This document shows positions 28,489 through 58,341 of a DNA stretch of 64,000 nucleotides, piece by piece. The translations under genes were made by a program, and so were the position numbers. The stretch comes from Escherichia coli. Lineage in GTDB: Bacteria > Pseudomonadota > Gammaproteobacteria > Enterobacterales > Enterobacteriaceae. The first letter of the stretch is position 1; each line of letters opens with the position of its first letter. Location: the NCBI RefSeq assembly GCF_051903065.1, contig NZ_CP178438.1; one strand, 5' to 3'. The notes under the pieces are model-generated. The model saw nothing but the letters and a program-made list of their open reading frames with translations. It did no database searches and was not told the origin of the DNA.

Positions 28489-29433
28489 ATGCCAGAGGTA
28501 CAAACAGATCATCCAGAGACGGCGGAGTTCAGCAAGCCACAGCTACGCATGGTCGATCTCAACTTATTAACCGTTTTCGATGCCGTGATGCAGGAGCAAA
28601 ACATTACCCGTGCCGCTCATGTTCTGGGAATGTCGCAACCTGCGGTCAGTAACGCTGTTGCACGCCTGAAGGTGATGTTTAATGACGAGCTTTTTGTTCG
28701 TTATGGCCGTGGTATTCAACCGACTGCTCGCGCATTTCAACTTTTTGGTTCAGTTCGCCAGGCATTGCAACTAGTACAAAATGAATTGCCTGGTTCAGGT
28801 TTTGAACCCGCGAGCAGTGAACGTGTATTTCATCTTTGTGTTTGCAGCCCGTTAGACAGCATTCTGACCTCGCAGATTTATAATCACATTGAGCAGATTG
28901 CGCCAAATATACATGTTATGTTCAAGTCTTCATTAAATCAGAACACTGAACATCAGCTGCGTTATCAGGAAACGGAGTTTGTGATTAGCTATGAAGACTT
29001 CCATCGTCCTGAATTTACCAGCGTGCCATTATTTAAAGATGAAATGGTGCTGGTAGCCAGCAAAAATCATCCAACAATTAAAGGCCCGTTACTGAAACAT
29101 GATGTTTATAACGAACAACATGCGGCGGTTTCGCTCGATCGTTTCGCGTCATTTAGTCAACCTTGGTATGACACGGTAGATAAGCAAGCCAGTATCGCGT
29201 ATCAGGGCATGGCAATGATGAGCGTACTTAGCGTGGTGTCGCAAACGCATTTGGTCGCTATTGCGCCGCGTTGGCTGGCTGAAGAGTTCGCTGAATCCTT
29301 AGAATTACAGGTATTACCGCTGCCGTTAAAACAAAACAGCAGAACCTGTTATCTCTCCTGGCATGAAGCTGCCGGGCGCGATAAAGGCCATCAGTGGATG
29401 GAAGAGCAATTAGTCTCAATTTGCAAACGCTAA
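28489..29433 (+). CDS. leuO: LysR-family regulator LeuO (314 aa)
   Basis: ORF 28405..29433; the ATG at 28489 gives [61 protein letters not shown] (HTH). Confidence 0.93.
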
Positions 29434-29750
29434 CTGAATGCAGAATAGGTCAGACATGAATATCTGGTTTATTCTGCATTTTCTATTGAATGTAGAATTT
29501 TATCCTGAATGTGTGGACTCTCTATTTTAGGATTAATTAAAAAAATAGAGAAATTGCTGTAAGTGGTGGGATTCAGCCGATTTATTATCAATTTAATCCT
29601 TCGTAATGGAGGATTTTATCGTTTCTTTTCACCTTTCCTCCTGTTTATTCTTATTACCCTGCGTTTATGTCTCTGGCTGCCAATTGCTTAAGCAAGATCG
29701 GACGGTTAATGTGTTTTACACATTTTTTCCGTCAAACAGTGAGGCAGGCC

Positions 29751-31475
29751 ATGGAGATGTTGTCTGGAGCCGAGATGGTCGTCCGATCGCTTATCGATCA
29801 GGGCGTTAAGCAAGTATTCGGTTATCCCGGAGGCGCAGTCCTTGATATTTACGATGCATTGCATACCGTGGGTGGTATTGATCATGTATTAGTTCGTCAT
29901 GAGCAGGCGGCGGTGCATATGGCCGATGGCCTGGCGCGTGCGACCGGGGAAGTCGGCGTCGTGCTGGTAACGTCGGGTCCAGGGGCGACCAATGCGATTA
30001 CCGGCATCGCCACCGCTTATATGGATTCCATTCCATTAGTTGTCCTTTCCGGGCAGGTAGCGACCTCGTTGATAGGTTACGATGCCTTTCAGGAGTGCGA
30101 CATGGTGGGGATTTCGCGACCGGTGGTTAAACACAGTTTTCTGGTTAAGCAAACGGAAGACATTCCGCAGGTGCTGAAAAAGGCTTTCTGGCTGGCGGCA
30201 AGTGGTCGCCCAGGACCAGTGGTCGTTGATTTACCGAAAGATATTCTTAATCCGGCGAACAAATTACCCTATGTCTGGCCGGAGTCGGTCAGTATGCGTT
30301 CTTACAATCCCACTACTACCGGACATAAAGGGCAAATTAAGCGTGCTCTGCAAACGCTGGTAGCGGCAAAAAAACCGGTTGTCTACGTAGGCGGTGGGGC
30401 AATCACGGCGGGCTGCCATCAGCAGTTGAAAGAAACGGTGGAGGCGTTGAATCTGCCCGTTGTTTCCTCATTGATGGGGCTGGGGGCGTTTCCGGCAACG
30501 CATCGTCAGGCACTGGGCATGCTGGGAATGCACGGTACCTACGAAGCCAATATGACGATGCATAACGCGGATGTGATTTTCGCCGTCGGGGTACGATTTG
30601 ATGACCGAACGACGAACAATCTGGCAAAGTACTGCCCAAATGCCACTGTTCTGCATATCGATATTGATCCTACTTCCATTTCTAAAACCGTGACTGCTGA
30701 TATCCCGATTGTGGGGGATGCTCGCCAGGTCCTCGAACAAATGCTTGAACTCTTGTCGCAAGAATCCGCCCATCAACCACTGGATGAGATCCGCGACTGG
30801 TGGCAGCAAATTGAACAGTGGCGCGCTCGTCAGTGCCTGAAATATGACACTCACAGTGAAAAGATTAAACCGCAGGCGGTGATCGAGACTCTTTGGCGGT
30901 TGACGAAGGGAGACGCTTACGTGACGTCCGATGTCGGGCAGCACCAGATGTTTGCTGCACTTTATTATCCATTCGACAAACCGCGTCGCTGGATCAATTC
31001 CGGTGGCCTCGGCACGATGGGTTTTGGTTTACCTGCGGCACTGGGCGTCAAAATGGCGTTGCCAGAAGAAACCGTGGTTTGCGTCACTGGCGACGGCAGT
31101 ATTCAGATGAACATCCAGGAACTGTCTACCGCGTTGCAATACGAGTTGCCCGTACTGGTGGTGAATCTCAATAACCGCTATCTGGGGATGGTGAAGCAGT
31201 GGCAGGACATGATCTATTCCGGCCGTCATTCACAATCTTATATGCAATCGCTACCCGATTTCGTCCGTCTGGCGGAAGCCTATGGGCATGTCGGGATCCA
31301 GATTTCTCATCCGCATGAGCTGGAAAGCAAACTTAGCGAGGCGCTGGAACAGGTGCGCAATAATCGCCTGGTGTTTGTTGATGTCACCGTCGATGGCAGT
31401 GAGCACGTCTACCCGATGCAGATTCGCGGGGGCGGAATGGATGAAATGTGGTTAAGCAAAACGGAGAGAACCTGA
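29751..31475 (+). CDS. ilvI: Acetolactate synthase III large subunit IlvI (574 aa)
   Basis: ORF 29667..31475; the ATG at 29751 gives [37 protein letters not shown]...; ThDP-binding motifs. Confidence 0.96.
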
Positions 31476-31477
31476 TT

Positions 31478-31969
31478 ATGCGCCGGATATTATCAGTCTT
31501 ACTCGAAAATGAATCAGGCGCGTTATCCCGCGTGATTGGCCTTTTTTCCCAGCGTGGCTACAACATTGAAAGCCTGACCGTAGCGCCAACCGACGATCCG
31601 ACATTATCGCGTATGACCATCCAGACCGTGGGCGATGAAAAAGTACTTGAGCAGATCGAAAAGCAATTACACAAGCTGGTCGATGTCTTGCGCGTGAGTG
31701 AGTTGGGGCAGGGCGCGCATGTTGAGCGGGAAATCATGCTGGTGAAAATTCAGGCCAGCGGTTACGGGCGTGACGAAGTGAAACGTAATACGGAAATATT
31801 CCGTGGGCAAATTATCGATGTCACACCCTCGCTTTATACCGTTCAATTAGCAGGCACCAGCGATAAGCTTGATGCATTTTTAGCATCGATTCGCGATGTG
31901 GCGAAAATTGTGGAAGTTGCTCGCTCTGGTGTGGTCGGACTTTCGCGCGGCGATAAAATAATGCGTTGA
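31478..31969 (+). CDS. ilvH: Acetolactate synthase III small (regulatory) subunit IlvH (163 aa)
   Basis: ORF 31448..31969; the ATG at 31478 gives [40 protein letters not shown]...; start overlaps the ilvI stop. Confidence 0.96.
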
Positions 31970-31993
31970 GAATGATCTCAATGCGCAATTTAC

Positions 31994-32023
31994 AGCCCAA
32001 CATGTCACGTTGGGCTTTTTTTG
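31994..32023 (+). terminator. ilvIH rho-independent terminator
   Basis: agcccaacatgtcacgttgggct hairpin followed by a T7 run. Confidence 0.85.
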
Positions 32024-32148
32024 CGAAATCAGTGGGAACCTGGAATAAAAGCAGTTGCCGCAGTTAATTTTCTGCGCTTAGATGTTAATGAATTTAACCC
32101 ATACCAGTACAATGGCTATGGTTTTTACATTTTACGCAAGGGGCAATT

Positions 32149-33153
32149 GTGAAACTGGATGAAATCGCTCGGCTGGCGGGAGTGTCGCGGACCACTGCAA
32201 GCTATGTTATTAACGGCAAAGCGAAGCAATACCGTGTGAGCGACAAAACCGTTGAAAAAGTCATGGCTGTCGTGCGTGAGCACAATTACCACCCGAACGC
32301 CGTGGCAGCTGGGCTTCGTGCTGGACGCACACGTTCTATTGGTCTTGTGATCCCCGATCTGGAGAACACCAGCTATACCCGCATCGCTAACTATCTTGAA
32401 CGCCAGGCGCGGCAACGGGGGTATCAACTGCTGATTGCCTGCTCAGAAGATCAGCCAGACAACGAAATGCGCTGTATTGAGCACCTTTTACAGCGTCAGG
32501 TCGATGCCATTATTGTTTCGACGTCGTTGCCTCCTGAGCATCCTTTTTATCAACGCTGGGCTAACGACCCGTTCCCGATTGTCGCGCTTGACCGCGCCCT
32601 CGATCGTGAACACTTTACCAGCGTGGTTGGTGCCGATCAGGATGATGCCGAAATGCTGGCGGAAGAGTTACGTAAGTTTCCCGCCGAGACGGTGCTTTAT
32701 CTTGGCGCGCTGCCGGAGCTTTCTGTCAGCTTCCTGCGTGAACAAGGTTTCCGTACTGCCTGGAAAGATGATCCGCGCGAAGTGCATTTTCTGTATGCCA
32801 ACAGCTATGAGCGGGAGGCGGCTGCCCAGTTATTCGAAAAATGGCTGGAAACGCATCCGATGCCGCAGGCGCTGTTCACAACGTCGTTTGCGTTGTTGCA
32901 AGGGGTGATGGATGTCACGCTACGTCGCGATGGTAAACTGCCTTCTGACCTGGCAATTGCCACCTTTGGCGATAACGAACTGCTCGACTTCTTACAGTGC
33001 CCGGTGCTGGCAGTGGCTCAACGTCACCGCGATGTCGCAGAGCGTGTGCTGGAGATTGTCCTGGCAAGCCTGGACGAACCACGTAAGCCAAAACCTGGTT
33101 TAACGCGCATTAAACGTAATCTCTATCGCCGCGGCGTGCTCAGCCGTAGCTAA
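32149..33153 (+). CDS. cra: Catabolite repressor/activator Cra (FruR), 334 aa, GTG start
   Basis: 334-aa ORF (GTG)[58 protein letters not shown]..., LacI family. Confidence 0.97.
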
Positions 33154-33190
33154 GCTGCGAACAAAAATACGCGCCAGGTGAATTTCACTC

Positions 33191-33199
33191 TGGCGCGTA
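33191..33199. repeat. IS1 target-site duplication, left copy (TGGCGCGTA)
   Basis: The identical 9-mer tggcgcgta directly flanks both IS1 ends (33191-33199 and 33968-33976). Confidence 0.9.
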
Positions 33200-33254
33200 G
33201 GTGATGCTGCCAACTTACTGATTTAGTGTATGATGGTGTTTTTGAGGTGCTCCA

Positions 33255-33530
33255 GTGGCTTCTGTTTCTATCAGCTGTCCCTCCTGTTCAGCTACTGACG
33301 GGGTGGTGCGTAACGGCAAAAGCACCGCCGGACATCAGCGCTATCTCTGCTCTCACTGCCGTAAAACATGGCAACTGCAGTTCACTTACACCGCTTCTCA
33401 ACCCGGTACGCACCAGAAAATCATTGATATGGCCATGAATGGCGTTGGATGCCGGGCAACAGCCCGCATTATGGGCGTTGGCCTCAACACGATTTTACGT
33501 CACTTAAAAAACTCAGGCCGCAGTCGGTAA
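33255..33530 (+). CDS. insA: IS1 InsA (91 aa)
   Basis: [91 protein letters not shown]. Confidence 0.97.
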
Positions 33531-33952
33531 CCTCGCGCATACAGCCGGGCAGTGACGTCATCGTCTGCGCGGAAATGGACGAACAGTGGGGCTATGTCGG
33601 GGCTAAATCGCGCCAGCGCTGGCTGTTTTACGCGTATGACAGGCTCCGGAAGACGGTTGTTGCGCACGTATTCGGTGAACGCACTATGGCGACGCTGGGG
33701 CGTCTTATGAGCCTGCTGTCACCCTTTGACGTGGTGATATGGATGACGGATGGCTGGCCGCTGTATGAATCCCGCCTGAAGGGAAAGCTGCACGTAATCA
33801 GCAAGCGATATACGCAGCGAATTGAGCGGCATAACCTGAATCTGAGGCAGCACCTGGCACGGCTGGGACGGAAGTCGCTGTCGTTCTCAAAATCGGTGGA
33901 GCTGCATGACAAAGTCATCGGGCATTATCTGAACATAAAACACTATCAATAA
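33449..33952 (+). CDS. insB: IS1 InsB (167 aa; expressed as an InsAB' transposase by -1 frameshift)
   Basis: [64 protein letters not shown]...; overlaps the insA 3' end in the -1 frame. Confidence 0.96.
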
Positions 33953-33967
33953 GTTGGAGTCATTACC

Positions 33968-33976
33968 TGGCGCGTA
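33968..33976. repeat. IS1 target-site duplication, right copy (TGGCGCGTA)
   Basis: Identical to 33191-33199. Confidence 0.9.
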
Positions 33977-34450
33977 GAGTACGGGACTGGACATCAATAT
34001 CCTTAAAGTAAATAAGACTATTCCTGACTATTATTGATAAATGCTTTTAAACCCGCCCATTAATTAACTCACCAGCTGAAATTCACAATAATTAAGTGAT
34101 ATCGACAGCGCGTTTTTGCATTATTTTGTTACATGCAGAGATGAATTGCCGATTTAACAAGCACTTTTCTTTGCTTTTGCGCAAACCCGCTGGCATCAAG
34201 CGCTACACAGACGCAACAGGGACTGTTAACCGGGGAAGATATGTCCTAAAATGCCGCTCGCGTCGCAAACTGACACTTTATATTTGCTGTGGAAAATAGT
34301 GAGTCATTTTAAAACGGTGATGACGATGAGGGTTTTTTTCTTACAGCTATTCATAACGTTAATTTGCTTCGCACGTTGGACGTAAAATAAACAACGCTGA
34401 TATTAGCCGTAAACATCGGGTTTTTTACCTCGGTATGCCTTGTGACTGGC

Positions 34451-34512
34451 TTGACAAGCTTTTCCTCCGCTCCGTAAACTCCTTTCAGTGGGAAATTGTG
34501 GGGCAAAGTGGG
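34451..34512 (+). promoter_or_regulatory. Pmra promoter (-35 TTGACA 34451-34456, -10 TAAACT 34475-34480) and three MraZ-binding GTGGG direct repeats at 10-bp spacing (34488, 34498, 34508)
   Basis: Direct reading; the repeat arrangement matches the established MraZ operator upstream of mraZ. Confidence 0.8.
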
Positions 34513-34531
34513 AATAAGGGGTGAGGCTGGC

Positions 34532-34990
34532 ATGTTCCGGGGAGCAACGTTAGTCAATCTCGACAGCAAAGGGCGCTTATCAGTGCCTACCCGTTATCGG
34601 GAACAGCTGCTTGAGAACGCTGCCGGTCAAATGGTTTGCACCATTGACATTCATCACCCGTGCCTGCTGCTTTACCCCCTGCCTGAATGGGAAATTATCG
34701 AGCAAAAATTATCGCGTCTGTCGAGCATGAACCCGGTTGAGCGCCGTGTGCAGCGCCTACTGTTAGGTCATGCCAGCGAATGTCAGATGGATGGCGCAGG
34801 TCGATTGTTAATCGCGCCAGTACTGCGGCAACATGCCGGGCTGACAAAAGAAGTGATGCTGGTTGGACAGTTCAACAAGTTTGAGCTGTGGGATGAAACA
34901 ACCTGGCATCAACAGGTCAAGGAAGATATCGACGCAGAGCAGTTGGCTACCGGAGACTTATCGGAGCGACTGCAGGACTTGTCTCTATAA
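34532..34990 (+). CDS. mraZ: Division/cell-wall cluster transcriptional regulator MraZ (152 aa)
   Basis: ORF 34496..34990; the ATG at 34532 gives [50 protein letters not shown]... Confidence 0.96.
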
Positions 34991-39551: not shown

Positions 39552-40906
39552 TTAGCGTAACCCTTAGCCAACTTACCGACATTCTCAACGGTGAACTGCA
39601 AGGTGCAGATATCACCCTTGATGCTGTAACCACTGATACCCGAAAACTGACGCCGGGCTGCCTGTTTGTTGCCCTGAAAGGCGAACGTTTCGATGCTCAT
39701 GATTTTGCCGACCAGGCGAAAGCTGGCGGCGCAGGCGCACTACTGGTTAGCCGTCCGCTGGACATCGACCTGCCGCAGTTAATCGTCAAGGATACGCGTC
39801 TGGCGTTTGGTGAACTGGCTGCATGGGTTCGCCAGCAAGTTCCGGCGCGCGTGGTTGCTCTGACGGGGTCCTCCGGCAAAACCTCCGTTAAAGAGATGAC
39901 GGCGGCGATTTTAAGCCAGTGCGGCAACACGCTTTATACGGCAGGCAATCTCAACAACGACATCGGTGTACCGATGACGCTGTTGCGCTTAACGCCGGAA
40001 TACGATTACGCAGTTATTGAACTTGGCGCGAACCATCAGGGCGAAATTGCCTGGACTGTGAGTCTGACTCGCCCGGAAGCTGCGCTGGTCAACAACCTGG
40101 CAGCGGCGCATCTGGAAGGTTTTGGCTCGCTTGCGGGTGTCGCGAAAGCGAAAGGTGAAATCTTTAGCGGCCTGCCGGAAAACGGTATCGCCATTATGAA
40201 CGCCGACAACAACGACTGGCTGAACTGGCAGAGCGTAATTGGCTCACGCAAAGTGTGGCGTTTCTCACCCAATGCCGCCAACAGCGATTTCACCGCCACC
40301 AATATCCATGTGACCTCGCACGGTACGGAATTTACCCTGCAAACCCCAACCGGTAGCGTGGATGTTCTGCTGCCGTTGCCGGGGCGTCACAATATTGCGA
40401 ATGCGCTGGCAGCCGCTGCGCTCTCCATGTCCGTGGGCGCAACGCTTGATGCTATCAAAGCGGGGCTGGCAAATCTGAAAGCTGTTCCAGGCCGTCTGTT
40501 CCCCATCCAACTGGCAGAAAACCAGTTGCTGCTCGACGACTCCTACAACGCCAATGTCGGTTCAATGACCGCAGCAGTCCAGGTACTGGCTGAAATGCCG
40601 GGCTACCGCGTGCTGGTGGTGGGCGATATGGCGGAACTGGGCGCTGAAAGCGAAGCCTGCCATGTACAGGTGGGCGAGGCGGCAAAAGCTGCTGGTATTG
40701 ACCGTGTGTTAAGCGTGGGTAAACAAAGCCATGCTATCAGCACCGCCAGCGGCGTTGGCGAACATTTTGCAGATAAAACAGCGCTTATCGCGCGTCTTAA
40801 ATCACTGATTGCTGAGCAACAGGTAATTACGATTTTAGTTAAGGGTTCACGTAGTGCCGCCATGGAAGAGGTAGTACGCGCTTTACAGGAGAATGGGACA
40901 TGTTAG
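39548..40906 (+). CDS. murF: UDP-MurNAc-pentapeptide synthetase MurF (452 aa)
   Basis: 452-aa [56 protein letters not shown]... Confidence 0.97.
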
Positions 40907-41982
40907 TTTGGCTGGCCGAACATTTGGTCAAATATTATTCCGGCTTTAACGTCTTTTCCTATCTGACGTTTCGCGCCATCGTCAGCCTGCTGACCGCGCT
41001 GTTCATCTCATTGTGGATGGGCCCGCGTATGATTGCTCATTTGCAAAAACTTTCCTTTGGTCAGGTGGTGCGTAACGACGGTCCTGAATCACACTTCAGC
41101 AAGCGCGGTACGCCGACCATGGGCGGGATTATGATCCTGACGGCGATTGTGATCTCCGTACTGCTGTGGGCTTACCCGTCCAATCCGTACGTCTGGTGCG
41201 TGTTGGTGGTGCTGGTAGGTTACGGTGTTATTGGCTTTGTTGATGATTATCGCAAAGTGGTGCGTAAAGACACCAAAGGGTTGATCGCTCGTTGGAAGTA
41301 TTTCTGGATGTCGGTCATTGCGCTGGGTGTCGCCTTCGCGCTGTACCTTGTTGGCAAAGACACGCCCGCAACGCAGCTGGTGGTCCCATTCTTTAAAGAT
41401 GTGATGCCGCAACTGGGGCTGTTCTACATTCTGCTGGCTTACTTCGTCATTGTGGGTACTGGCAACGCGGTAAACCTGACCGATGGTCTTGACGGTCTGG
41501 CAATTATGCCGACCGTATTTGTCGCCGGTGGTTTTGCGCTGGTGGCGTGGGCGACCGGCAACATGAACTTTGCCAGCTATTTACACATACCGTATCTGCG
41601 ACACGCCGGGGAACTGGTTATTGTCTGTACCGCGATAGTCGGGGCAGGACTGGGCTTCCTGTGGTTTAACACCTATCCGGCGCAGGTCTTTATGGGCGAT
41701 GTAGGTTCGCTGGCGTTAGGTGGTGCGTTAGGCATTATCGCCGTACTGCTACGTCAGGAATTCCTGCTGGTGATTATGGGGGGCGTGTTCGTGGTAGAAA
41801 CGCTTTCTGTCATCCTGCAGGTCGGCTCCTTTAAACTGCGCGGACAACGTATTTTCCGCATGGCACCGATTCATCACCACTATGAACTGAAAGGCTGGCC
41901 GGAACCGCGCGTCATTGTGCGTTTCTGGATTATTTCGCTGATGCTGGTCCTGATTGGTCTGGCAACGCTGAAGGTACGTTAA
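40900..41982 (+). CDS. mraY: Phospho-MurNAc-pentapeptide translocase MraY (360 aa)
   Basis: 360-aa [53 protein letters not shown]... Confidence 0.97.
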
Positions 41983-41984
41983 TC

Positions 41985-43301
41985 ATGGCTGATTACCAGG
42001 GTAAAAATGTTGTCATTATCGGCCTGGGCCTCACCGGGCTTTCCTGCGTGGACTTTTTCCTCGCTCGCGGTGTGACGCCGCGCGTTATGGATACGCGTAT
42101 GACACCGCCTGGCCTGGATAAATTACCCGAAGCCGTAGAACGCCACACGGGCAGTCTGAATGATGAATGGCTGATGGCGGCAGATCTGATTGTCGCCAGT
42201 CCCGGTATTGCACTGGCGCATCCATCCTTAAGCGCTGCCGCTGATGCCGGAATCGAAATCGTTGGCGATATCGAGCTGTTCTGTCGCGAAGCACAAGCAC
42301 CGATTGTGGCGATTACCGGTTCTAACGGCAAAAGCACGGTCACCACGCTAGTGGGTGAAATGGCGAAAGCGGCGGGGGTTAACGTTGGTGTGGGTGGCAA
42401 TATTGGCCTGCCTGCGTTGATGCTACTGGATGATGAGTGTGAACTGTACGTGCTGGAACTGTCGAGCTTCCAGCTGGAAACCACCTCCAGCTTACAGGCG
42501 GTAGCAGCGACCATTCTGAACGTGACTGAAGATCATATGGATCGCTATCCGTTTGGTTTACAACAGTATCGTGCAGCAAAACTGCGCATTTACGAAAACG
42601 CGAAAGTTTGCGTGGTTAATGCTGATGATGCCTTAACAATGCCGATTCGCGGTGCGGATGAACGCTGCGTCAGCTTTGGCGTCAACATGGGTGACTATCA
42701 CCTGAATCATCAGCAGGGCGAAACCTGGCTGCGGGTGAAAGGCGAGAAAGTGCTGAACGTGAAAGAAATGAAACTTTCCGGGCAGCATAACTACACCAAT
42801 GCGCTCGCAGCACTGGCACTGGCAGACGCAGCTGGTTTGCCGCGCGCCAGCAGCCTGAAAGCATTAACCACATTCACTGGTCTGCCGCATCGCTTTGAAG
42901 TTGTGCTGGAGCATAACGGCGTACGTTGGATTAACGATTCAAAAGCGACCAACGTCGGCAGTACGGAAGCGGCGCTGAATGGCCTGCACGTAGACGGCAC
43001 GCTGCATTTGTTGCTGGGCGGTGATGGTAAATCGGCGGACTTTAGCCCACTGGCGCGTTACCTGAATGGCGATAACGTACGTCTGTATTGTTTCGGTCGT
43101 GACGGCGCGCAGCTGGCGGCGCTACGCCCGGAAGTGGCAGAACAAACCGAAACTATGGAACAGGCGATGCGCTTGCTGGCTCCGCGTGTTCAGCCGGGCG
43201 ATATGGTTCTGCTCTCCCCGGCCTGTGCCAGCCTTGATCAGTTCAAGAACTTTGAACAACGAGGCAATGAGTTTGCCCGTCTGGCGAAGGAGTTAGGTTG
43301 A
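41985..43301 (+). CDS. murD: UDP-MurNAc-L-Ala:D-Glu ligase MurD (438 aa)
   Basis: 438-aa [51 protein letters not shown]... Confidence 0.97.
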
Positions 43302-44545
43302 TGCGTTTATCTCTCCCTCGCCTGAAAATGCCGCGCCTGCCAGGATTCAGTATCCTGGTCTGGATCTCCACGGCGCTAAAGGGCTGGGTGATGGGGTCGC
43401 GGGAAAAAGATACCGACAGCCTGATCATGTACGATCGCACCTTACTGTGGCTGACCTTCGGCCTCGCGGCGATTGGCTTTATCATGGTGACCTCGGCGTC
43501 AATGCCCATAGGGCAACGCTTAACCAACGATCCGTTCTTCTTCGCGAAGCGTGATGGTGTCTATCTGATTTTGGCGTTTATTCTGGCGATCATTACGCTG
43601 CGTCTGCCGATGGAGTTCTGGCAACGCTACAGTGCCACGATGCTGCTCGGATCTATCATCCTGCTGATGATCGTGCTGGTAGTGGGGAGCTCGGTTAAAG
43701 GGGCATCGCGTTGGATCGATCTCGGTTTGCTGCGTATCCAGCCTGCGGAGCTGACAAAACTGTCGCTGTTTTGCTATATCGCCAACTATCTGGTGCGTAA
43801 AGGCGACGAAGTACGTAATAACCTGCGCGGCTTCCTGAAGCCGATGGGCGTGATTCTGGTGTTGGCAGTGTTACTGCTGGCACAGCCAGACCTTGGTACG
43901 GTGGTGGTGTTGTTTGTGACTACGCTGGCGATGTTGTTCCTGGCGGGAGCGAAATTGTGGCAGTTCATTGCCATTATCGGTATGGGCATTTCAGCGGTTG
44001 TGTTGCTGATCCTCGCCGAACCGTACCGTATCCGCCGTGTTACTGCATTCTGGAACCCGTGGGAAGATCCCTTTGGCAGCGGCTATCAGTTAACGCAATC
44101 GCTGATGGCGTTTGGTCGCGGCGAACTTTGGGGGCAAGGTTTAGGTAACTCGGTACAAAAACTGGAGTATCTGCCGGAAGCGCACACTGACTTTATTTTC
44201 GCCATTATCGGCGAAGAACTGGGGTATGTCGGTGTGGTGCTGGCACTTTTAATGGTATTCTTCGTCGCTTTTCGCGCGATGTCGATTGGCCGTAAAGCAT
44301 TAGAAATTGACCACCGTTTTTCCGGTTTTCTCGCCTGTTCCATTGGCATCTGGTTTAGCTTCCAGGCGCTGGTTAACGTAGGCGCGGCGGCGGGGATGTT
44401 ACCGACCAAAGGTCTGACATTGCCGCTTATCAGTTACGGTGGTTCGAGCTTACTGATTATGTCGACAGCCATCATGATGCTGTTGCGTATTGATTATGAA
44501 ACGCGTCTGGAGAAAGCGCAGGCGTTTGTACGAGGTTCACGATGA
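43301..44545 (+). CDS. ftsW: Peptidoglycan glycosyltransferase / lipid II flippase FtsW (414 aa)
   Basis: ORF 43298..44545 (TTG-extended); the ATG at 43301 gives [50 protein letters not shown]... Confidence 0.96.
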
Positions 44546-45609
44546 GTGGTCAAGGAAAGCGATTAATGGTGATGGCAGGCGGAACCGGTGGACATGTATT
44601 CCCGGGACTGGCGGTTGCGCACCATCTAATGGCTCAGGGTTGGCAAGTTCGCTGGCTGGGGACTGCCGACCGTATGGAAGCGGACTTAGTGCCAAAACAT
44701 GGCATCGAAATTGATTTCATTCGTATCTCTGGTCTGCGTGGAAAAGGTATAAAAGCACTGATAGCTGCGCCGCTGCGTATCTTCAATGCCTGGCGTCAGG
44801 CGCGGGCGATTATGAAAGCGTACAAACCTGACGTGGTGCTCGGTATGGGCGGCTACGTATCAGGTCCTGGTGGTCTGGCCGCGTGGTCGTTAGGCATTCC
44901 GGTTGTACTTCATGAACAAAACGGTATTGCGGGCTTAACCAATAAATGGCTGGCGAAGATTGCCACCAAAGTGATGCAGGCGTTTCCAGGTGCTTTCCCC
45001 AATGCGGAAGTGGTGGGTAACCCGGTGCGTACCGATGTGTTGGCGCTACCGTTGCCGCAGCAACGTTTGGCTGGACGTGAAGGTCCGGTTCGTGTGCTGG
45101 TAGTGGGTGGTTCCCAGGGCGCACGCATTCTTAACCAGACAATGCCGCAGGTTGCTGCGAAACTGGGTGATTCAGTCACTATCTGGCATCAGAGCGGCAA
45201 AGGTTCGCAACAATCCGTTGAACAGGCGTATGCCGAAGCGGGGCAACCGCAGCATAAAGTGACGGAATTTATTGATGATATGGCGGCGGCGTATGCGTGG
45301 GCGGATGTCGTCGTTTGCCGCTCCGGTGCGTTAACGGTGAGTGAAATCGCCGCGGCAGGACTACCGGCGTTGTTTGTGCCGTTTCAACATAAAGACCGCC
45401 AGCAATACTGGAATGCGCTACCGCTGGAAAAAGCGGGCGCAGCCAAAATTATCGAGCAGCCACAGCTTAGCGTGGATGCTGTCGCCAACACCCTGGCCGG
45501 GTGGTCGCGAGAAACCTTATTAACCATGGCAGAACGCGCCCGCGCTGCATCCATTCCGGATGCCACCGAGCGAGTGGCAAATGAAGTGAGCCGGGCTGCC
45601 CGGGCGTAA
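44542..45609 (+). CDS. murG: Lipid II synthase (UDP-GlcNAc transferase) MurG (355 aa)
   Basis: 355-aa [57 protein letters not shown]... Confidence 0.97.
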
Positions 45610-45662
45610 TTGTAGCGATGCCTTTTGCATCGTATGAATTTAAGAAGTTAATGGCGTAAAGA

Positions 45663-48051
<2,389 letters not shown>

Positions 48052-48052
48052 T

Positions 48053-48883
48053 ATGTCGCAGGCTGCTCTGAACACGCGAAACAGCGAAGAAGAGGTTTCT
48101 TCTCGCCGCAATAATGGAACGCGTCTGGCGGGGATCCTTTTCCTGCTGACCGTTTTAACGACAGTGTTGGTGAGCGGCTGGGTCGTGTTGGGCTGGATGG
48201 AAGATGCGCAACGCCTGCCGCTCTCAAAGCTGGTGTTGACCGGTGAACGCCATTACACGCGTAATGACGATATCCGGCAGTCGATCCTGGCATTGGGTGA
48301 GCCAGGTACCTTTATGACCCAGGATGTCAACATCATCCAGACGCAAATAGAACAACGCCTGCCGTGGATTAAGCAGGTGAGCGTCAGAAAGCAGTGGCCT
48401 GATGAATTGAAGATTCATCTGGTTGAATATGTGCCGATTGCGCGGTGGAATGATCAACATATGGTAGACGCGGAAGGAAACACCTTCAGCGTGCCGCCAG
48501 ATCGCACCAGCAAGCAGGTGCTTCCAATGCTGTATGGCCCGGAAGGCAGCGCCAATGAAGTGTTGCAGGGCTATCGCGAAATGGGGCAGATGCTGGCAAA
48601 GGACAGATTTACTCTGAAGGAAGCGGCGATGACCGCGCGGCGTTCCTGGCAGTTGACGCTGAATAACGATATTAAGCTCAATCTTGGCCGGGGCGATACG
48701 ATGAAACGTTTGGCTCGCTTTGTAGAACTTTATCCGGTTTTACAGCAGCAGGCGCAAACCGATGGCAAACGGATTAGCTACGTTGATTTGCGTTATGACT
48801 CTGGAGCGGCAGTAGGCTGGGCGCCCTTGCCGCCAGAGGAATCTACTCAGCAACAAAATCAGGCACAGGCAGAACAACAATGA
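48053..48883 (+). CDS. ftsQ: Cell division protein FtsQ (276 aa)
   Basis: 276-aa [67 protein letters not shown]... Confidence 0.97.
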
Positions 48884-50142
48884 TCAAGGCGACGGACAGA
48901 AAACTGGTAGTAGGACTGGAGATTGGTACCGCGAAGGTTGCCGCTTTAGTAGGGGAAGTTCTGCCCGACGGTATGGTCAATATCATTGGCGTGGGCAGCT
49001 GCCCGTCGCGTGGTATGGATAAAGGCGGGGTGAACGACCTCGAATCCGTGGTCAAGTGCGTACAACGTGCCATTGACCAGGCAGAATTGATGGCAGATTG
49101 TCAGATCTCTTCGGTATATCTGGCGCTTTCTGGTAAGCACATCAGCTGCCAGAATGAAATTGGTATGGTGCCTATTTCTGAAGAAGAAGTGACGCAAGAA
49201 GATGTGGAAAACGTCGTCCATACCGCGAAATCGGTGCGTGTGCGCGATGAGCATCGTGTGCTGCATGTGATCCCGCAAGAGTATGCGATTGACTATCAGG
49301 AAGGGATCAAGAATCCGGTAGGACTTTCGGGCGTGCGGATGCAGGCAAAAGTGCACCTGATCACATGTCACAACGATATGGCGAAAAACATCGTCAAAGC
49401 GGTTGAACGTTGTGGGCTGAAAGTTGACCAACTGATATTTGCCGGACTGGCATCAAGTTATTCGGTATTGACGGAAGATGAACGTGAACTGGGTGTCTGC
49501 GTCGTCGATATCGGTGGTGGTACAATGGATATCGCCGTTTATACCGGTGGGGCATTGCGCCACACTAAGGTAATTCCTTATGCTGGCAATGTCGTGACCA
49601 GTGATATCGCTTACGCCTTTGGCACGCCGCCAAGCGACGCCGAAGCGATTAAAGTTCGCCACGGTTGTGCGCTGGGTTCCATCGTTGGAAAAGATGAGAG
49701 CGTGGAAGTGCCGAGCGTAGGTGGTCGTCCGCCGCGGAGTCTGCAACGTCAGACCCTGGCAGAGGTGATCGAGCCGCGCTATACCGAGCTGCTCAACCTG
49801 GTCAACGAAGAGATATTGCAGTTGCAGGAAAAGCTTCGCCAACAAGGGGTTAAACATCACCTGGCGGCAGGCATTGTATTAACCGGTGGCGCAGCGCAGA
49901 TCGAAGGTCTTGCAGCCTGTGCTCAGCGCGTGTTTCATACGCAAGTGCGTATCGGCGCGCCGCTGAACATTACCGGTTTAACGGATTATGCTCAGGAGCC
50001 GTATTATTCGACGGCGGTGGGATTGCTTCACTATGGGAAAGAGTCACATCTTAACGGTGAAGCTGAAGTAGAAAAACGTGTTACAGCATCAGTTGGCTCG
50101 TGGATCAAGCGACTCAATAGTTGGCTGCGAAAAGAGTTTTAA
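48880..50142 (+). CDS. ftsA: Cell division protein FtsA (420 aa)
   Basis: 420-aa [57 protein letters not shown]... Confidence 0.97.
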
Positions 50143-50202
50143 TTTTTATGAGGCCGACGATGATTACGGCCTCAGGCGACAGGCACAAATCGGAGAGAAA
50201 CT

Positions 50203-51354
50203 ATGTTTGAACCAATGGAACTTACCAATGACGCGGTGATTAAAGTCATCGGCGTCGGCGGCGGTGGCGGTAATGCTGTTGAACACATGGTGCGTGAGCG
50301 CATTGAAGGTGTTGAATTCTTCGCGGTAAATACCGATGCACAAGCGCTGCGTAAAACAGCGGTTGGACAGACGATTCAAATCGGTAGCGGTATCACCAAA
50401 GGACTGGGCGCTGGCGCTAATCCAGAAGTTGGCCGCAATGCGGCTGATGAGGATCGCGATGCATTGCGTGCGGCGCTGGAAGGTGCAGACATGGTCTTTA
50501 TTGCTGCGGGTATGGGTGGTGGTACCGGTACAGGTGCAGCACCAGTCGTCGCTGAAGTGGCAAAAGATTTGGGTATCCTGACCGTTGCTGTCGTCACTAA
50601 GCCTTTCAACTTTGAAGGCAAGAAGCGTATGGCATTCGCGGAGCAGGGGATCACTGAACTGTCCAAGCATGTGGACTCTCTGATCACTATCCCGAACGAC
50701 AAACTGCTGAAAGTTCTGGGCCGCGGTATCTCCCTGCTGGATGCGTTTGGCGCAGCGAACGATGTACTGAAAGGCGCTGTGCAAGGTATCGCCGAACTGA
50801 TTACTCGTCCGGGTTTGATGAACGTGGACTTTGCAGACGTACGCACCGTAATGTCTGAAATGGGCTACGCAATGATGGGTTCTGGCGTGGCAAGCGGTGA
50901 AGACCGTGCGGAAGAAGCTGCTGAAATGGCTATCTCTTCTCCGCTGCTGGAAGATATCGACCTGTCTGGCGCACGCGGCGTGCTGGTTAACATCACAGCG
51001 GGCTTCGACCTGCGTCTGGATGAGTTCGAAACGGTAGGTAACACCATCCGTGCATTTGCTTCCGACAACGCGACCGTGGTTATCGGTACTTCTCTTGACC
51101 CGGATATGAATGACGAGCTGCGCGTAACTGTTGTTGCGACAGGTATCGGCATGGACAAACGTCCTGAAATCACTCTGGTGACCAATAAGCAGGTTCAGCA
51201 GCCAGTGATGGATCGCTACCAGCAGCACGGGATGGCTCCGCTGACCCAGGAGCAGAAGCCGGTTGCTAAAGTCGTGAATGACAATGCGCCGCAAACTGCG
51301 AAAGAGCCGGATTATCTGGATATCCCAGCATTCCTGCGTAAGCAAGCTGATTAA
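50203..51354 (+). CDS. ftsZ: Cell division GTPase FtsZ (383 aa)
   Basis: 383-aa [54 protein letters not shown]...; tubulin signature GGGTGTG. Confidence 0.98.
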
Positions 51355-51433
51355 GAATTGACTGGAATTTGGGTTTCGAGGCTCTTTGTGCTAAACTGGC
51401 CCGCCGAATGTATAGTACACTTCGGTTGGATAG

Positions 51434-52372
<939 letters not shown>

Positions 52373-52434
52373 CGACATTTATACTGTCGTATAAAATTCG
52401 ACTGGCAAATCTGGCACTCTCTCCGGCCAGGTGA

Positions 52435-53115
<681 letters not shown>

Positions 53116-53176
53116 CAACAATAAACCTTTACTTCATTTTATTAACTCCGCAACGCGGGGCGTTTGAGATTTTATT

Positions 53177-55882
53177 ATGCTAATCAAATTATTAACTAAA
53201 GTTTTCGGTAGTCGTAACGATCGCACCCTGCGCCGGATGCGCAAAGTGGTCAACATCATCAATGCCATGGAACCGGAGATGGAAAAACTCTCCGACGAAG
53301 AACTGAAAGGGAAAACCGCAGAGTTTCGTGCACGTCTGGAAAAAGGCGAAGTGCTGGAAAGTCTGATCCCGGAAGCTTTCGCCGTGGTACGTGAGGCAAG
53401 TAAGCGCGTCTTTGGTATGCGTCACTTCGACGTTCAGTTACTCGGCGGTATGGTTCTTAACGAACGCTGCATCGCCGAAATGCGTACCGGTGAAGGTAAA
53501 ACCCTGACCGCAACGCTGCCTGCTTACCTGAACGCACTAACCGGTAAAGGCGTGCATGTAGTTACCGTCAACGACTACCTGGCGCAACGTGACGCCGAAA
53601 ACAACCGTCCGCTGTTTGAATTCCTTGGCCTGACTGTCGGTATCAACCTGCCGGGCATGCCAGCACCGGCAAAGCGCGAAGCTTACGCAGCTGACATCAC
53701 TTACGGTACGAACAACGAATATGGCTTTGACTACCTGCGCGACAATATGGCGTTCAGCCCTGAAGAACGTGTACAGCGTAAACTGCACTATGCGCTGGTG
53801 GACGAAGTGGACTCCATCCTGATCGATGAAGCGCGTACACCGCTGATCATTTCCGGCCCGGCAGAAGACAGCTCGGAAATGTATAAACGCGTGAATAAAA
53901 TTATTCCGCACCTGATCCGTCAGGAAAAAGAAGACTCCGAAACCTTCCAGGGCGAAGGCCACTTCTCGGTGGACGAAAAATCTCGCCAGGTGAACCTGAC
54001 CGAACGTGGTCTGGTGCTGATTGAAGAACTGCTGGTGAAAGAGGGCATCATGGATGAAGGGGAGTCTCTGTACTCTCCGGCCAACATCATGCTGATGCAC
54101 CACGTAACGGCGGCGCTGCGCGCTCATGCGCTGTTTACCCGTGACGTCGACTACATCGTTAAAGATGGTGAAGTTATCATCGTTGACGAACACACCGGTC
54201 GTACCATGCAGGGCCGTCGCTGGTCCGATGGTCTGCACCAGGCTGTGGAAGCGAAAGAAGGTGTGCAGATCCAGAACGAAAACCAAACGCTGGCTTCGAT
54301 CACCTTCCAGAACTACTTCCGTCTGTATGAAAAACTGGCGGGGATGACCGGTACTGCTGATACCGAAGCTTTCGAATTCAGCTCCATCTACAAGCTGGAT
54401 ACCGTCGTTGTTCCGACCAACCGTCCAATGATTCGTAAAGATCTGCCTGACCTGGTCTACATGACTGAAGCGGAAAAAATTCAGGCGATCATTGAAGATA
54501 TCAAAGAACGTACTGCGAAAGGCCAGCCGGTGCTGGTGGGTACAATCTCCATCGAAAAATCGGAGCTGGTGTCAAACGAACTGACCAAAGCCGGTATTAA
54601 GCACAATGTCCTGAACGCCAAATTCCACGCCAACGAAGCGGCGATTGTTGCTCAGGCAGGTTATCCGGCTGCGGTGACTATCGCGACCAACATGGCGGGT
54701 CGTGGTACAGATATTGTGCTCGGTGGTAGCTGGCAGGCAGAAGTTGCCGCGCTGGAAAATCCGACCGCAGAGCAAATTGAAAAAATTAAAGCCGACTGGC
54801 AGGTACGTCACGATGCGGTACTGGCAGCAGGTGGCCTGCATATCATCGGTACCGAGCGTCACGAATCCCGTCGTATCGATAACCAGTTGCGCGGTCGTTC
54901 TGGTCGTCAGGGGGATGCTGGTTCTTCCCGTTTCTACCTGTCGATGGAAGATGCGCTGATGCGTATTTTTGCTTCCGACCGAGTATCCGGCATGATGCGT
55001 AAACTGGGTATGAAGCCAGGCGAAGCCATTGAACACCCGTGGGTGACCAAAGCGATTGCTAACGCCCAGCGTAAAGTTGAAAGCCGTAACTTCGACATTC
55101 GTAAGCAACTGCTGGAATATGATGACGTGGCTAACGATCAGCGTCGCGCCATTTACTCCCAGCGTAACGAATTGCTGGATGTTAGCGATGTGAGCGAAAC
55201 CATTAACAGCATTCGTGAAGATGTGTTCAAAGCGACCATTGATGCCTACATTCCACCACAGTCGCTGGAAGAAATGTGGGATATTCCGGGGCTGCAGGAA
55301 CGTCTGAAGAACGATTTCGACCTCGATTTGCCAATTGCCGAGTGGCTGGATAAAGAACCAGAACTGCATGAAGAGACGCTGCGTGAGCGCATTCTGGCGC
55401 AGTCCATCGAAGTGTATCAGCGTAAAGAAGAAGTGGTTGGTGCTGAGATGATGCGTCACTTCGAGAAAGGCGTCATGCTGCAAACGCTTGACTCCCTGTG
55501 GAAAGAGCACCTGGCAGCGATGGACTATCTGCGTCAGGGTATCCACCTGCGTGGCTACGCACAGAAAGATCCGAAGCAGGAATACAAACGTGAATCGTTC
55601 TCCATGTTTGCAGCGATGCTGGAGTCGTTGAAATATGAAGTTATCAGTACGCTGAGCAAAGTTCAGGTACGTATGCCTGAAGAGGTTGAGGAGCTGGAAC
55701 AACAGCGTCGTATGGAAGCCGAGCGTTTAGCGCAAATGCAGCAGCTTAGCCATCAGGATGACGACTCTGCAGCCGCGGCTGCACTGGCGGCGCAAACCGG
55801 TGAACGCAAAGTAGGACGTAACGATCCTTGCCCGTGCGGTTCTGGTAAAAAATACAAGCAGTGCCATGGTCGCCTGCAATAA
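53177..55882 (+). CDS. secA: Preprotein translocase ATPase SecA (901 aa)
   Basis: 901-aa [66 protein letters not shown]...; C-terminal zinc-binding [14 protein letters not shown]. Confidence 0.98.
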
Positions 55883-55903
55883 AAGCTAACAGTTGAAGTA
55901 AAA

Positions 55904-55928
55904 GGCGCAGGATTCTGCGCCTTTTTTA
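55904..55928 (+). terminator. secA rho-independent terminator
   Basis: ggcgcaggattctgcgcc hairpin followed by a T6 run. Confidence 0.85.
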
Positions 55929-55941
55929 TAGGTTTAAGACA

Positions 55942-56331
55942 ATGAAAAAGCTGCAAATTGCGGTAGGTATTATTCGCAACGAGAACAATGAAATCTTTAT
56001 AACGCGTCGCGCAGCAGATGCGCACATGGCGAATAAACTGGAGTTTCCCGGCGGTAAAATTGAAATGGGTGAAACGCCGGAACAGGCGGTGGTGCGTGAA
56101 CTTCAGGAAGAAGTCGGGATTATCCCACAACATTTTTCGCTATTTGAAAAACTGGAATATGAATTCCCGGACAGGCATATAACTCTGTGGTTCTGGCTGG
56201 TCGAAAGCTGGGAAGGGGAGCCGTGGGGTAAAGAAGGGCAACCCGGTAAGTGGATGTCGCTGGTCGGTCTTAATGCCGATGATTTTCCGCCAGCCAATGA
56301 ACCGGTAATTGCGAAGCTTAAACGTCTGTAG
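55942..56331 (+). CDS. mutT: 8-oxo-dGTP diphosphatase MutT (129 aa)
   Basis: 129-aa ORF MKKLQIAVGIIRNENNEIFITRRAADAHMANKLEFPGGKIEMGETPEQAVVRELQEEVGI (Nudix box). Confidence 0.97.
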   Translation: MKKLQIAVGIIRNENNEIFITRRAADAHMANKLEFPGGKIEMGETPEQAVVRELQEEVGIIPQHFSLFEKLEYEFPDRHITLWFWLVESWEGEPWGKEGQPGKWMSLVGLNADDFPPANEPVIAKLKRL

Positions 56332-56334
56332 GTC

Positions 56335-56530
<196 letters not shown>

Positions 56531-56546
56531 CGGCATCAGACAAATG

Positions 56547-56744
56547 TCACTGCTTTGGCTCTTCGCTCCAGTCATCGCTTTCGGAAAGATCGCCACTGCT
56601 GGGGATTCGTTTTTCTTCAGCAGCCCATTCTCCGAGGTCGATCAGCTGACAACGTTTGGAGCAAAATGGCCGAAACGGGCTGATTTCACCCCACACCACC
56701 GTTTTCCCGCAGGTTGGGCAATTCACCGTAATAGTTTCTGACAT
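56547..56744 (-). CDS. yacG: DNA gyrase inhibitor YacG (65 aa, zinc ribbon)
   Basis: 65-aa [52 protein letters not shown]... Confidence 0.93.
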
Positions 56745-56753
56745 TTTTACTCC

Positions 56754-57497
56754 TTAGCAACAGGCCAGTTCGAAATCCAGACGTTCCGGTACCTGTCCGT
56801 TTTCAGTGTCCAGCGGCATAAAACGAATGGCAAAACGGCTCTTATGTCCGGAAATTTGCGGATAAAGCTGTGAATCGAGCGACAGATTCAGGCGCAGCAA
56901 GTCGGCATCGCCACCGTTATCCTGATAAAAACCATTCAGGCTGGTTTGTTTACGGAAGGGGGCCGACTGGCGAATTAAATCCAGCACCATGGTAAGTGCC
57001 TGGGTGAGCGGATTCAGGCTGGCAATCCAGGTTTCTACCTGGCTGTCGCGCTGCGCCTGGGGTAGATGCAGCCAAATGTGCAATGTAGGTAAATCAAAGC
57101 TGCAACAGCCGCCTGGGATGCTCAGTCGCTGACGCACCAGAGCAATCAAACGATCTTCACGCAGAAATTGCCCGATACGCGGCGCGGAGATTAATACGCT
57201 CCCCGCCGCTTTTAACTGCTGAATTAATGCTTCAATACGGCTCTGGTCCACGCCAGGCACGCCAATCCAGGTCTGGAGTTTACGTTGCTGCCGGTCAAGT
57301 TCTTTCAACAGCTCAGTGCGGACTTCGCCGCGCTCGAAAACATCCAGTAATTCACTGACATTACGGAAGAAATGCAGCGCGCCAGCGTGGTCAACGATGG
57401 GTAAATTAACGGTGAGTTGCTGAATCAAAAACTCAATGCGCAGCCATGTACGCATTTTTTCATTTAGTGGATGTTCAAAAAGGACCTGGGTCTGCAT
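56754..57497 (-). CDS. zapD: Cell division factor ZapD (YacF), 247 aa
   Basis: 247-aa [50 protein letters not shown]... Confidence 0.95.
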
Positions 57498-58117
57498 TAC
57501 GGTTTTTCCTGTGAGACAAACTGCGACGCAAGCTGCAAATAGTGTGCGTGCAGGCGGGCAACATCCGATGCGATAGCATCCGGTGCGCCGTTATTATCAA
57601 TGACGTCATCTGCCACGGCAAGGCGGGCTTCGCGCGTTGCCTGAGCAGCAAGGATTTGTTCGACATGCTCGCGAGTTACATCATCGCGCTGCATGGTGCG
57701 CTTAAGTTGCGTTTCTGGGCTGACATCCACCACCAGCACTCGATTCGCTTTTTTATACAGTGAGTTTTCTACCAGCAATGGCACAACCCACAGTACATAG
57801 GGGGAGGTTGCTTGCTGGATCTGGTGTTGCGTCTCTTGCTGAATCAGCGGATGCAGCAGGTCGTTAAGCCAGTTTTTCTCTTCCGGGTTGGCGAAGATCC
57901 GCTCGCGCAAGGCCCGGCGCTGCAATGTTCCATCAGCAGCAATCATGTTAGCGCCAAAGTGATCAGCAATGGCATGTAGCGCAGGTGCACCTGGTTCAAC
58001 CACCTGACGCGCAATAATATCGGCATCAATGACGTTAATTCCGAGATCAGCAAACGCATTGGCAACGGTACTCTTGCCACTGCCAATGCCTCCCGTTAAG
58101 GCAACTATATACCTCAT
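57497..58117 (-). CDS. coaE: Dephospho-CoA kinase CoaE (206 aa)
   Basis: 206-aa [50 protein letters not shown] (P-loop); stop overlaps the zapD start by 1 nt. Confidence 0.96.
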
Positions 58118-58341
58118 AATTTATATTCCCGGGAATTCATCATGATTATCAAAACGTTAAAAATGAGCGCACGAAAGCGAAATTGATGAAACGTTCGCTC
58201 ACTATTTACCAGGTAAATTTATGGGATTGTAGCGTAAAAAAAGACAATTTCGCAGTCTTGCGCCGCATTGATTAGTGCGTATGATAGCGTCACTGGAGTT
58301 GCGCTCTTACCCTTATAGCCATTAACCCCAGGAATCCGCAC

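Follow-up and report, generated by a model that had tools for sequence, protein, structure and literature searches.

A complete IS1A-like element with a 9-bp target-site duplication between cra and mraZ in an Escherichia coli clone

Introduction

IS1 transposes through staggered cuts made 9 bp apart in the target, and repair of the resulting gaps duplicates the target sequence. An A6C motif in the element directs a -1 frameshift that joins insA to insB' and yields the InsAB' transposase. The target habits of IS1 have been surveyed: duplications are of 8 or 9 bp, no motif is recognised, and AT-rich and non-coding DNA is preferred (PMC5009759). Hot regions for insertion sequences have been reported, for example the regulatory region of bgl (PMC5493358). 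In a 2025 study, transcription coming from upstream raised both the transcription of insAB' and transposition, and an upstream terminator lowered both (PMC12428005). Finally, in the early phase of the LTEE, mutations and IS150 insertions near the mraZ promoter brought a strong benefit (PMC4301190). Insertions in the gap between cra and mraZ can therefore matter, given these IS150 and point mutations upstream of mraZ.

Here, we describe an IS1 copy located in the cra-mraZ gap of an E. coli chromosome. The analysis covers a 64-kb stretch of DNA, called the window throughout. The element closely resembles IS1A of MG1655 (NC_000913.3 19796..20563): the two are identical at 767 of 768 positions and have the same length, ends, insA/insB layout and A6C motif. 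They differ in their chromosomal location and at position 444, where IS1A has a T and the window copy a G. The G encodes an Arg in InsB and is also found in IS1 of MB53 and 184/2aE. As for its surroundings, the cra-mraZ gap resembles the IS1 hot regions in AT-rich, H-NS-type DNA (bgl, leuO) in that a short stretch has been hit repeatedly.

Results

A complete IS1 flanked by a true target-site duplication

The features of the locus are collected in Table 1. The first-pass annotation had described a complete 768-bp IS1 with intact insA and insB and both terminal repeats; direct reading and a script check bear this out, coordinates included. The final letters of the element, at 33967, are ...ATCAATAAGTTGGAGTCATTACC. 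IRL and IRR show no mismatch to the IS1 end pattern (GGTRATG start, about 23 bp, imperfect repeats), and IRR agrees with IRL at 18 of the first 23 positions. No other IS1-end match is present in the 64-kb window, and shuffles give an expectation of 0. When joined to insA through the predicted frameshift, the insB frame gives a reconstructed InsAB' fusion of 232 aa, which scores 245 bits (cut-off 100, E = 6e-73) against the NCBIfam equivalog NF033558, 'IS1 family transposase'. The N-terminal zinc-binding domain of insA is recognised by NF050000 (NCBIfam, 41 bits). Overall, length and ends, overlapping frames with the A6C motif, the transposase model and an 8- or 9-bp duplication all place the element in the IS1 family. 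With its frames and ends intact, this copy is likely transposition-competent and probably still mobile.

Table 1 Features of the cra-mraZ locus (window coordinates) and independent IS1 insertions in the gap
Feature	Coordinates	Strand or orientation	Basis or remark
cra (fruR), intact, upstream neighbour	32149..33153	+	ORF list; TAA stop 33151..33153
Hairpin, 10 + 4 bp, 15 nt past cra stop	33168..33199		folding
Left duplication copy, TGGCGCGTA, 9 of 10 nt of the hairpin 3' arm	33191..33199		direct reading and script
Complete IS1, 768 bp, IS1A-like allele	33200..33967	+	direct reading and script check
IRL, GGTGATGCTGCCAACTTACTGAT	33200..33222	+	end-pattern match
Promoter-like site CTGCCA-16-TATGAT, overlaps IRL	33207..33234	+	promoter scan
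insA, 91 aa, GTG start	33255..33530	+	ORF list
insB frame, 167-aa ORF as listed	33449..33952	+	ORF list
A6C programmed -1 frameshift motif, TTAAAAAACTC	33504..33514	+	in insA/insB overlap
insB G-run, CTGGGGCG	33801..33804 region		one G missing in 23CRST027/23CRST031
IRR, GGTAATGACTCCAACTTATTGAT as read on the minus strand	33945..33967	-	end-pattern match
Right duplication copy, TGGCGCGTA	33968..33976		direct reading and script
TTATTGATA	34031..34039		site of TTAYTGAT at 34031
Presumed Pmra, TTGACA-18-TAAACT, intact	34451..34480	+	reading and promoter scan
Three presumed MraZ boxes, GTGGG, intact	~34489..34515	+	downstream of Pmra
mraZ, first dcw cluster gene, intact	34532..34990	+	ORF list
Event i: 23CRST027, 23CRST031, window	reference position	+	duplication TGGCGCGTA, 9 bp
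Event ii: WEM25	identical site	opposite orientation	duplication TGGCGCGTA, 9 bp
Event iii: 1585m1	25 bp downstream	same orientation	duplication TCAATATC, 8 bp
Event iv: MB53	68 bp downstream	same orientation	duplication GATAAATGC, 9 bp

The 9-mer copies on both sides of IS1 are identical, and the chance recurrence of a given 9-mer at a fixed position is 3.8e-6. Empty sites with a single TGGCGCGTA copy are found in MG1655 and PapRG-06-5, as well as in most other E. coli genomes. In the MG1655 region NC_000913.3 87900..90200, the cra-mraZ gap contains the 9-mer once and no annotated feature. Because MG1655 and most E. coli carry the 9-mer once, the flanking pair is a true target-site duplication, as had been proposed. 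The first-pass annotation had itself named two observations that would speak against its reading, namely two 9-mers in relatives devoid of IS1 and an IS1 at the same place in K-12 MG1655; the relatives carry one 9-mer and the MG1655 gap is empty. The view that the insertion is simple and unrearranged also holds, with clean junctions and a perfect duplication. After removal of IS1 and one 9-mer, the window differs from PapRG-06-5 at 9 positions over 4,024 bp. A look-up of the exact Cra protein in public assemblies gave no further insertions; all 10 displayed neighbourhoods (standing for 682 contigs) have an empty 601-bp gap.

The hairpin downstream of cra

The hairpin that ends at the left junction is made of the arms TACGCGCCAG (33168..33177) and CTGGCGCGTA (33190..33199) plus 4 inner pairs. 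It folds with -28 kcal/mol on the + strand (z = -4.5) and with -30.7 kcal/mol on the minus strand (z = -5.9), and it is conserved in MG1655. The target 9-mer is part of the 3' arm and the stem survives on the left of IS1, in agreement with the first-pass annotation; since the left duplication copy completes the stem, the insertion leaves the hairpin as it was.

The label 'cra terminator' that had been given to this structure is doubtful. A GC-rich hairpin does lie directly downstream of cra, as expected of an intrinsic terminator, but a 3' U-rich tract is lacking on the cra strand: the + strand tail after the hairpin is GAGTACGGG / GAGUACGGG in the native arrangement and GGTGATGCT / GGUGAUGCU with IS1. 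The T-run TATTTTTGTT / UAUUUUUGUU instead trails the hairpin on the minus strand, and corresponds to the A-tract ahead of it on the + strand (33158..33167). A terminator scan of the + strand found nothing at the hairpin, the loop limit of the scan (8) excluding the 12-nt loop in any case. By the usual criteria, the hairpin looks like an intrinsic terminator of transcripts that run leftward out of the cra-mraZ gap; for cra, it would probably be 3'-end stabilising at most. We also observe that the minus-strand hairpin with its T-tract (33158..33199) faces a gap devoid of annotated genes and RNAs. Rfam scans (gathering-threshold over the whole window, E-value scan over 33000..34700) detected no known RNA between cra and mraZ.

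The insertion belongs to a single clone

Two 24-kb stretches of the window (48 kb) are 100.0% identical to the corresponding DNA of 23CRST027 and 23CRST031, both E. coli from human faeces in Ecuador. The next-best genomes reach 98.8% and 99.4% identity over the two stretches. 23CRST027 (NZ_AP045789.1) and 23CRST031 (NZ_AP045800.1) have the same insertion site, orientation, 9-bp duplication and flanks as the window. When both are stripped of IS1 and of one 9-mer, 23CRST027 shows 0 differences from the window over 4,024 bp of flank. The insertion is thus already known, since the same copy is annotated in these RefSeq genomes, where PGAP labels it as an IS1-like element IS1A family transposase. 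However, 23CRST027 and 23CRST031 have one G fewer in the insB run CTGGGGCG and their transposase is annotated as frameshifted, whereas the run is intact in the window. This discrepancy is either a real difference among members of the clone or a homopolymer error in an assembly.

Among the matches listed in 5,426 complete E. coli genomes, this insertion is confined to this one clone. It therefore arose after the clone had split from all other genomes of the collection, which agrees with the recent origin proposed for it earlier. An IS1 count had also been suggested as a guide to strain background; it was carried out on the relative 23CRST027. In 23CRST027, the 1.8-kb query matched the chromosome at 37 places, equivalent to about 36 IS1 copies, versus a median of 10 places per genome, so that the 23CRST027-like lineage is an IS1-rich background. 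The IS1 insertion is a useful marker of this lineage.

IS1 has entered the cra-mraZ gap at least four times

The 5,426 complete E. coli genomes were searched with the real arrangement (1.8 kb), a construct with IS1 inverted, a construct with IS1 shifted, which served to validate the detection logic, and a longer construct with IS1 in both orientations. MB53 was absent from the results of the shorter queries and was recovered with the longer one, and the numbers of IS1-bearing genomes given here are lower bounds. At least 6 of the 5,426 genomes have IS1 in the cra-mraZ gap. They represent at least four independent events, all located no more than 68 bp past the hairpin (Table 1). WEM25, 1585m1 and MB53 have a full-length IS1 like that of the window, but result from separate events, with alleles that differ by 1-5 nt. 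In WEM25, IS1 differs from the window copy at 2 positions and the flanks contain 42 SNPs per 4 kb; in 1585m1, IS1 differs at 5 positions. Altogether, the chromosomal backgrounds of WEM25 and 1585m1 are 37-42 SNPs per 4 kb away from the window. Past the hairpin, the GC content falls from about 52% to 25-38% across the 68-bp stretch that holds the four events. The IHF consensus WATCARNNNNTTR has no match near the target, and a metagenome scan with the left-junction pattern for both IS1 orientations (CTCTGGCGCGTAGGTRATGMYKCCAAC) gave 0 matches.

MB53 has, besides its cra-mraZ IS1, an IS200C between ilvN(H) and cra (MB53 locus 1467..1925). Both gaps around cra therefore tolerate insertions.

The leuO region provides a control for clustering. 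Across the leuL-leuO gap, leuO and the leuO-ilvI gap (about 28030..29655), at least 31 of the 5,426 genomes carry IS1, at about 26 positions, and several of these insertions disrupt leuO. Conversely, no IS1 was seen in the coding sequences of ilvI, ilvH, cra, mraZ, rsmH and ftsL among the matches listed for the 5,426 genomes. At least about 29 events have thus occurred in the leuO region, versus at least four at cra-mraZ, and both show reuse of a site in opposite orientations. At window position 28141, PEC1003 and STK78-E carry IS1 in opposite orientations with a common duplication, GATTTGGTG; at 28796, 184/2aE and 266917_2 do so with a common junction. The IS1 alleles at these two reused sites are each 27 positions away from the window copy. 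Because the leuO region shows the same exact-site reuse, returning to one site in either orientation is normal for IS1 where the DNA is AT-rich and dispensable. That the insertion was unusual, as the first-pass annotation implied, is therefore overstated: IS1 struck a 68-bp stretch at least four times independently, and leuO far more often.

We had also considered a special hotspot, from three hits within 25 bp of the 601-bp gap (p ~0.005 in a uniform model). This candidate was downgraded, the leuO control being denser with the same reuse.

Distance to the mraZ promoter and expected effect on the neighbouring genes

We take the TTGACA-18-TAAACT site to be Pmra and the GTGGG repeats to be MraZ boxes, identities that we regard as established knowledge (Eraso et al. 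2014, as cited in PMC4301190). The right end of IS1 lies 484 bp from the -35 hexamer TTGACA of Pmra (34451), close to the 480 bp estimated earlier. IS1 is co-oriented with cra and mraZ. The suggestion that IS1 ends could supply outward promoters found no support here, the scan predicting no hybrid promoter at the junctions of either IS1 end. The best candidate found by hand combines TTGGAG (33954..33959), a 17-nt spacer and GAGTAC, which has 2 of the 6 letters of the -10 consensus TATAAT.

The window's IS1 could be a comparatively active donor, because read-through from cra would enter it in the sense direction and transcription from upstream stimulates IS1 (PMC12428005). As judged from sequence features, the insertion most likely has no effect, or a slight one, on fitness and regulation, and is probably near-neutral, with no indication of a change in the neighbouring genes. 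For an IS1 insertion at cra-mraZ, we know of no selectable phenotype. The weight of the finding is small: it adds one more data point on reused IS1 sites at the edge of AT-rich intergenic DNA. Its interest would rise if the essential dcw cluster proved to be expressed at measurably different levels because of the insertion, and the sequence gives no hint of that.

Target preference and tolerance as the likely origin

We consider it likely that a simple transposition of an IS1A-type element into the cra-mraZ gap took place in the ancestor of one 23CRST027/23CRST031-like clone, with no or slight effect. Following the known IS1 mechanism, InsAB' would have cut TGGCGCGTA with a 9-bp stagger, and gap repair would have produced the second copy of the 9-mer. 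The target lies at the junction between the GC-rich hairpin and an AT-rich block (25-38% GC), DNA of the type that IS1 repeatedly selects. The insertion interrupts no gene. Pmra and the MraZ operator are unaltered, as is the hairpin after cra, and any transcripts leaving cra past the hairpin would run into IS1 in the sense direction.

Could the insertion have been selected? IS1 would then alter the expression of mraZ/dcw or of cra, by insulating Pmra or by feeding or blocking transcription, and its recurrence would reflect parallel evolution. At least four independent insertions within 68 bp are compatible with this idea, as is the repeated selection, in the LTEE, of mutations and IS150 upstream of mraZ (PMC4301190). 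In addition, the window's IS1 reads toward mraZ, and upstream transcription boosts insAB' (PMC12428005). We nevertheless hold selection to be unlikely. The insertions are found in both orientations and at three positions, which implies no common transcriptional consequence. All of them are grouped at the end of the gap away from Pmra, at least 416 bp from its -35 hexamer, and the scan predicts no hybrid promoter. With at least 6 of 5,426 genomes among the matches listed, there is no sign of spread. Finally, the non-essential leuO region shows the same pattern, and a denser one, as expected from target preference and tolerance. Distance to the promoter, mixed orientations and positions, rarity and the leuO parallel lead us to favour target preference together with tolerance over selection.

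That DNA structure directed the insertion appears quite improbable. In this view, the inverted repeat after cra would form a hairpin or cruciform, and IS1 would cut preferentially at its base. Surveys give no IS1 target motif beyond AT-richness (PMC5009759), and neither the other two events of the gap nor the reused sites 28141 and 28796 coincide with hairpin arms. In favour of the idea, the 3' arm of a perfect 10-bp inverted repeat was precisely what two independent insertions duplicated, and three events placed uniformly over 601 bp would share a site with a probability of about 0.5%. Yet the sample consists of 2 events, and the mirror image of the target in the 5' arm (the 9-mer at 33168..33176) is unhit among the matches listed. 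Misplacement of an IS1 copy during assembly, for which nothing specific speaks beyond the fact that IS copies often cause misassembly, is practically negligible, as the junctions are clean on both sides, the 9-bp duplication is perfect, and the same junctions recur in two independently deposited complete genomes.

Sequences resembling IS1 ends near the insertion clusters

Recruitment of IS1 by pseudo-ends is an idea of the 1980s that, to our knowledge, was never tested genome-wide. IS1 hot spots were reportedly proposed to resemble IS1 ends by Zerbib et al. in 1985 and by Gamas et al. in 1987. The two terminal repeats of IS1 share the core TTAYTGAT. Within 27000..34600, this octamer has only two native occurrences, at 28155 and 34031, and both fall inside clusters of independent IS1 insertions. 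Events located no more than 70 bp from TTAYTGAT amount to 9 of about 33, versus 12% expected (binomial p = 0.012, for a distance chosen post hoc). It is conceivable, though rather doubtful, that IS1 picks its targets at nucleotide resolution beside short sequences that resemble its own ends. If so, the site at the cra hairpin would illustrate, in a natural setting, InsAB' recruitment by pseudo-ends.

Other observations in the window

The segment 1..24000 is found as a single place with at least 80% coverage in 2,887 of 5,425 genomes, and its best identity outside the clone is 98.8%, versus 99.4% for 40000..64000. Given this lower coverage and identity, E. coli genomes vary more in the left part of the window. 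Across the chromosomal ftsA-ftsZ junction, 50122..50211 matches the Rfam family PssrA ('Plasmid-encoded Shigella sRNA A') with 105 bits, an odd location for a family described as plasmid-encoded. In addition, naRNA4 (nucleoid-associated ncRNA, REP-type repeats) has two tandem matches at 56331..56524, downstream of the secA/mutT region.
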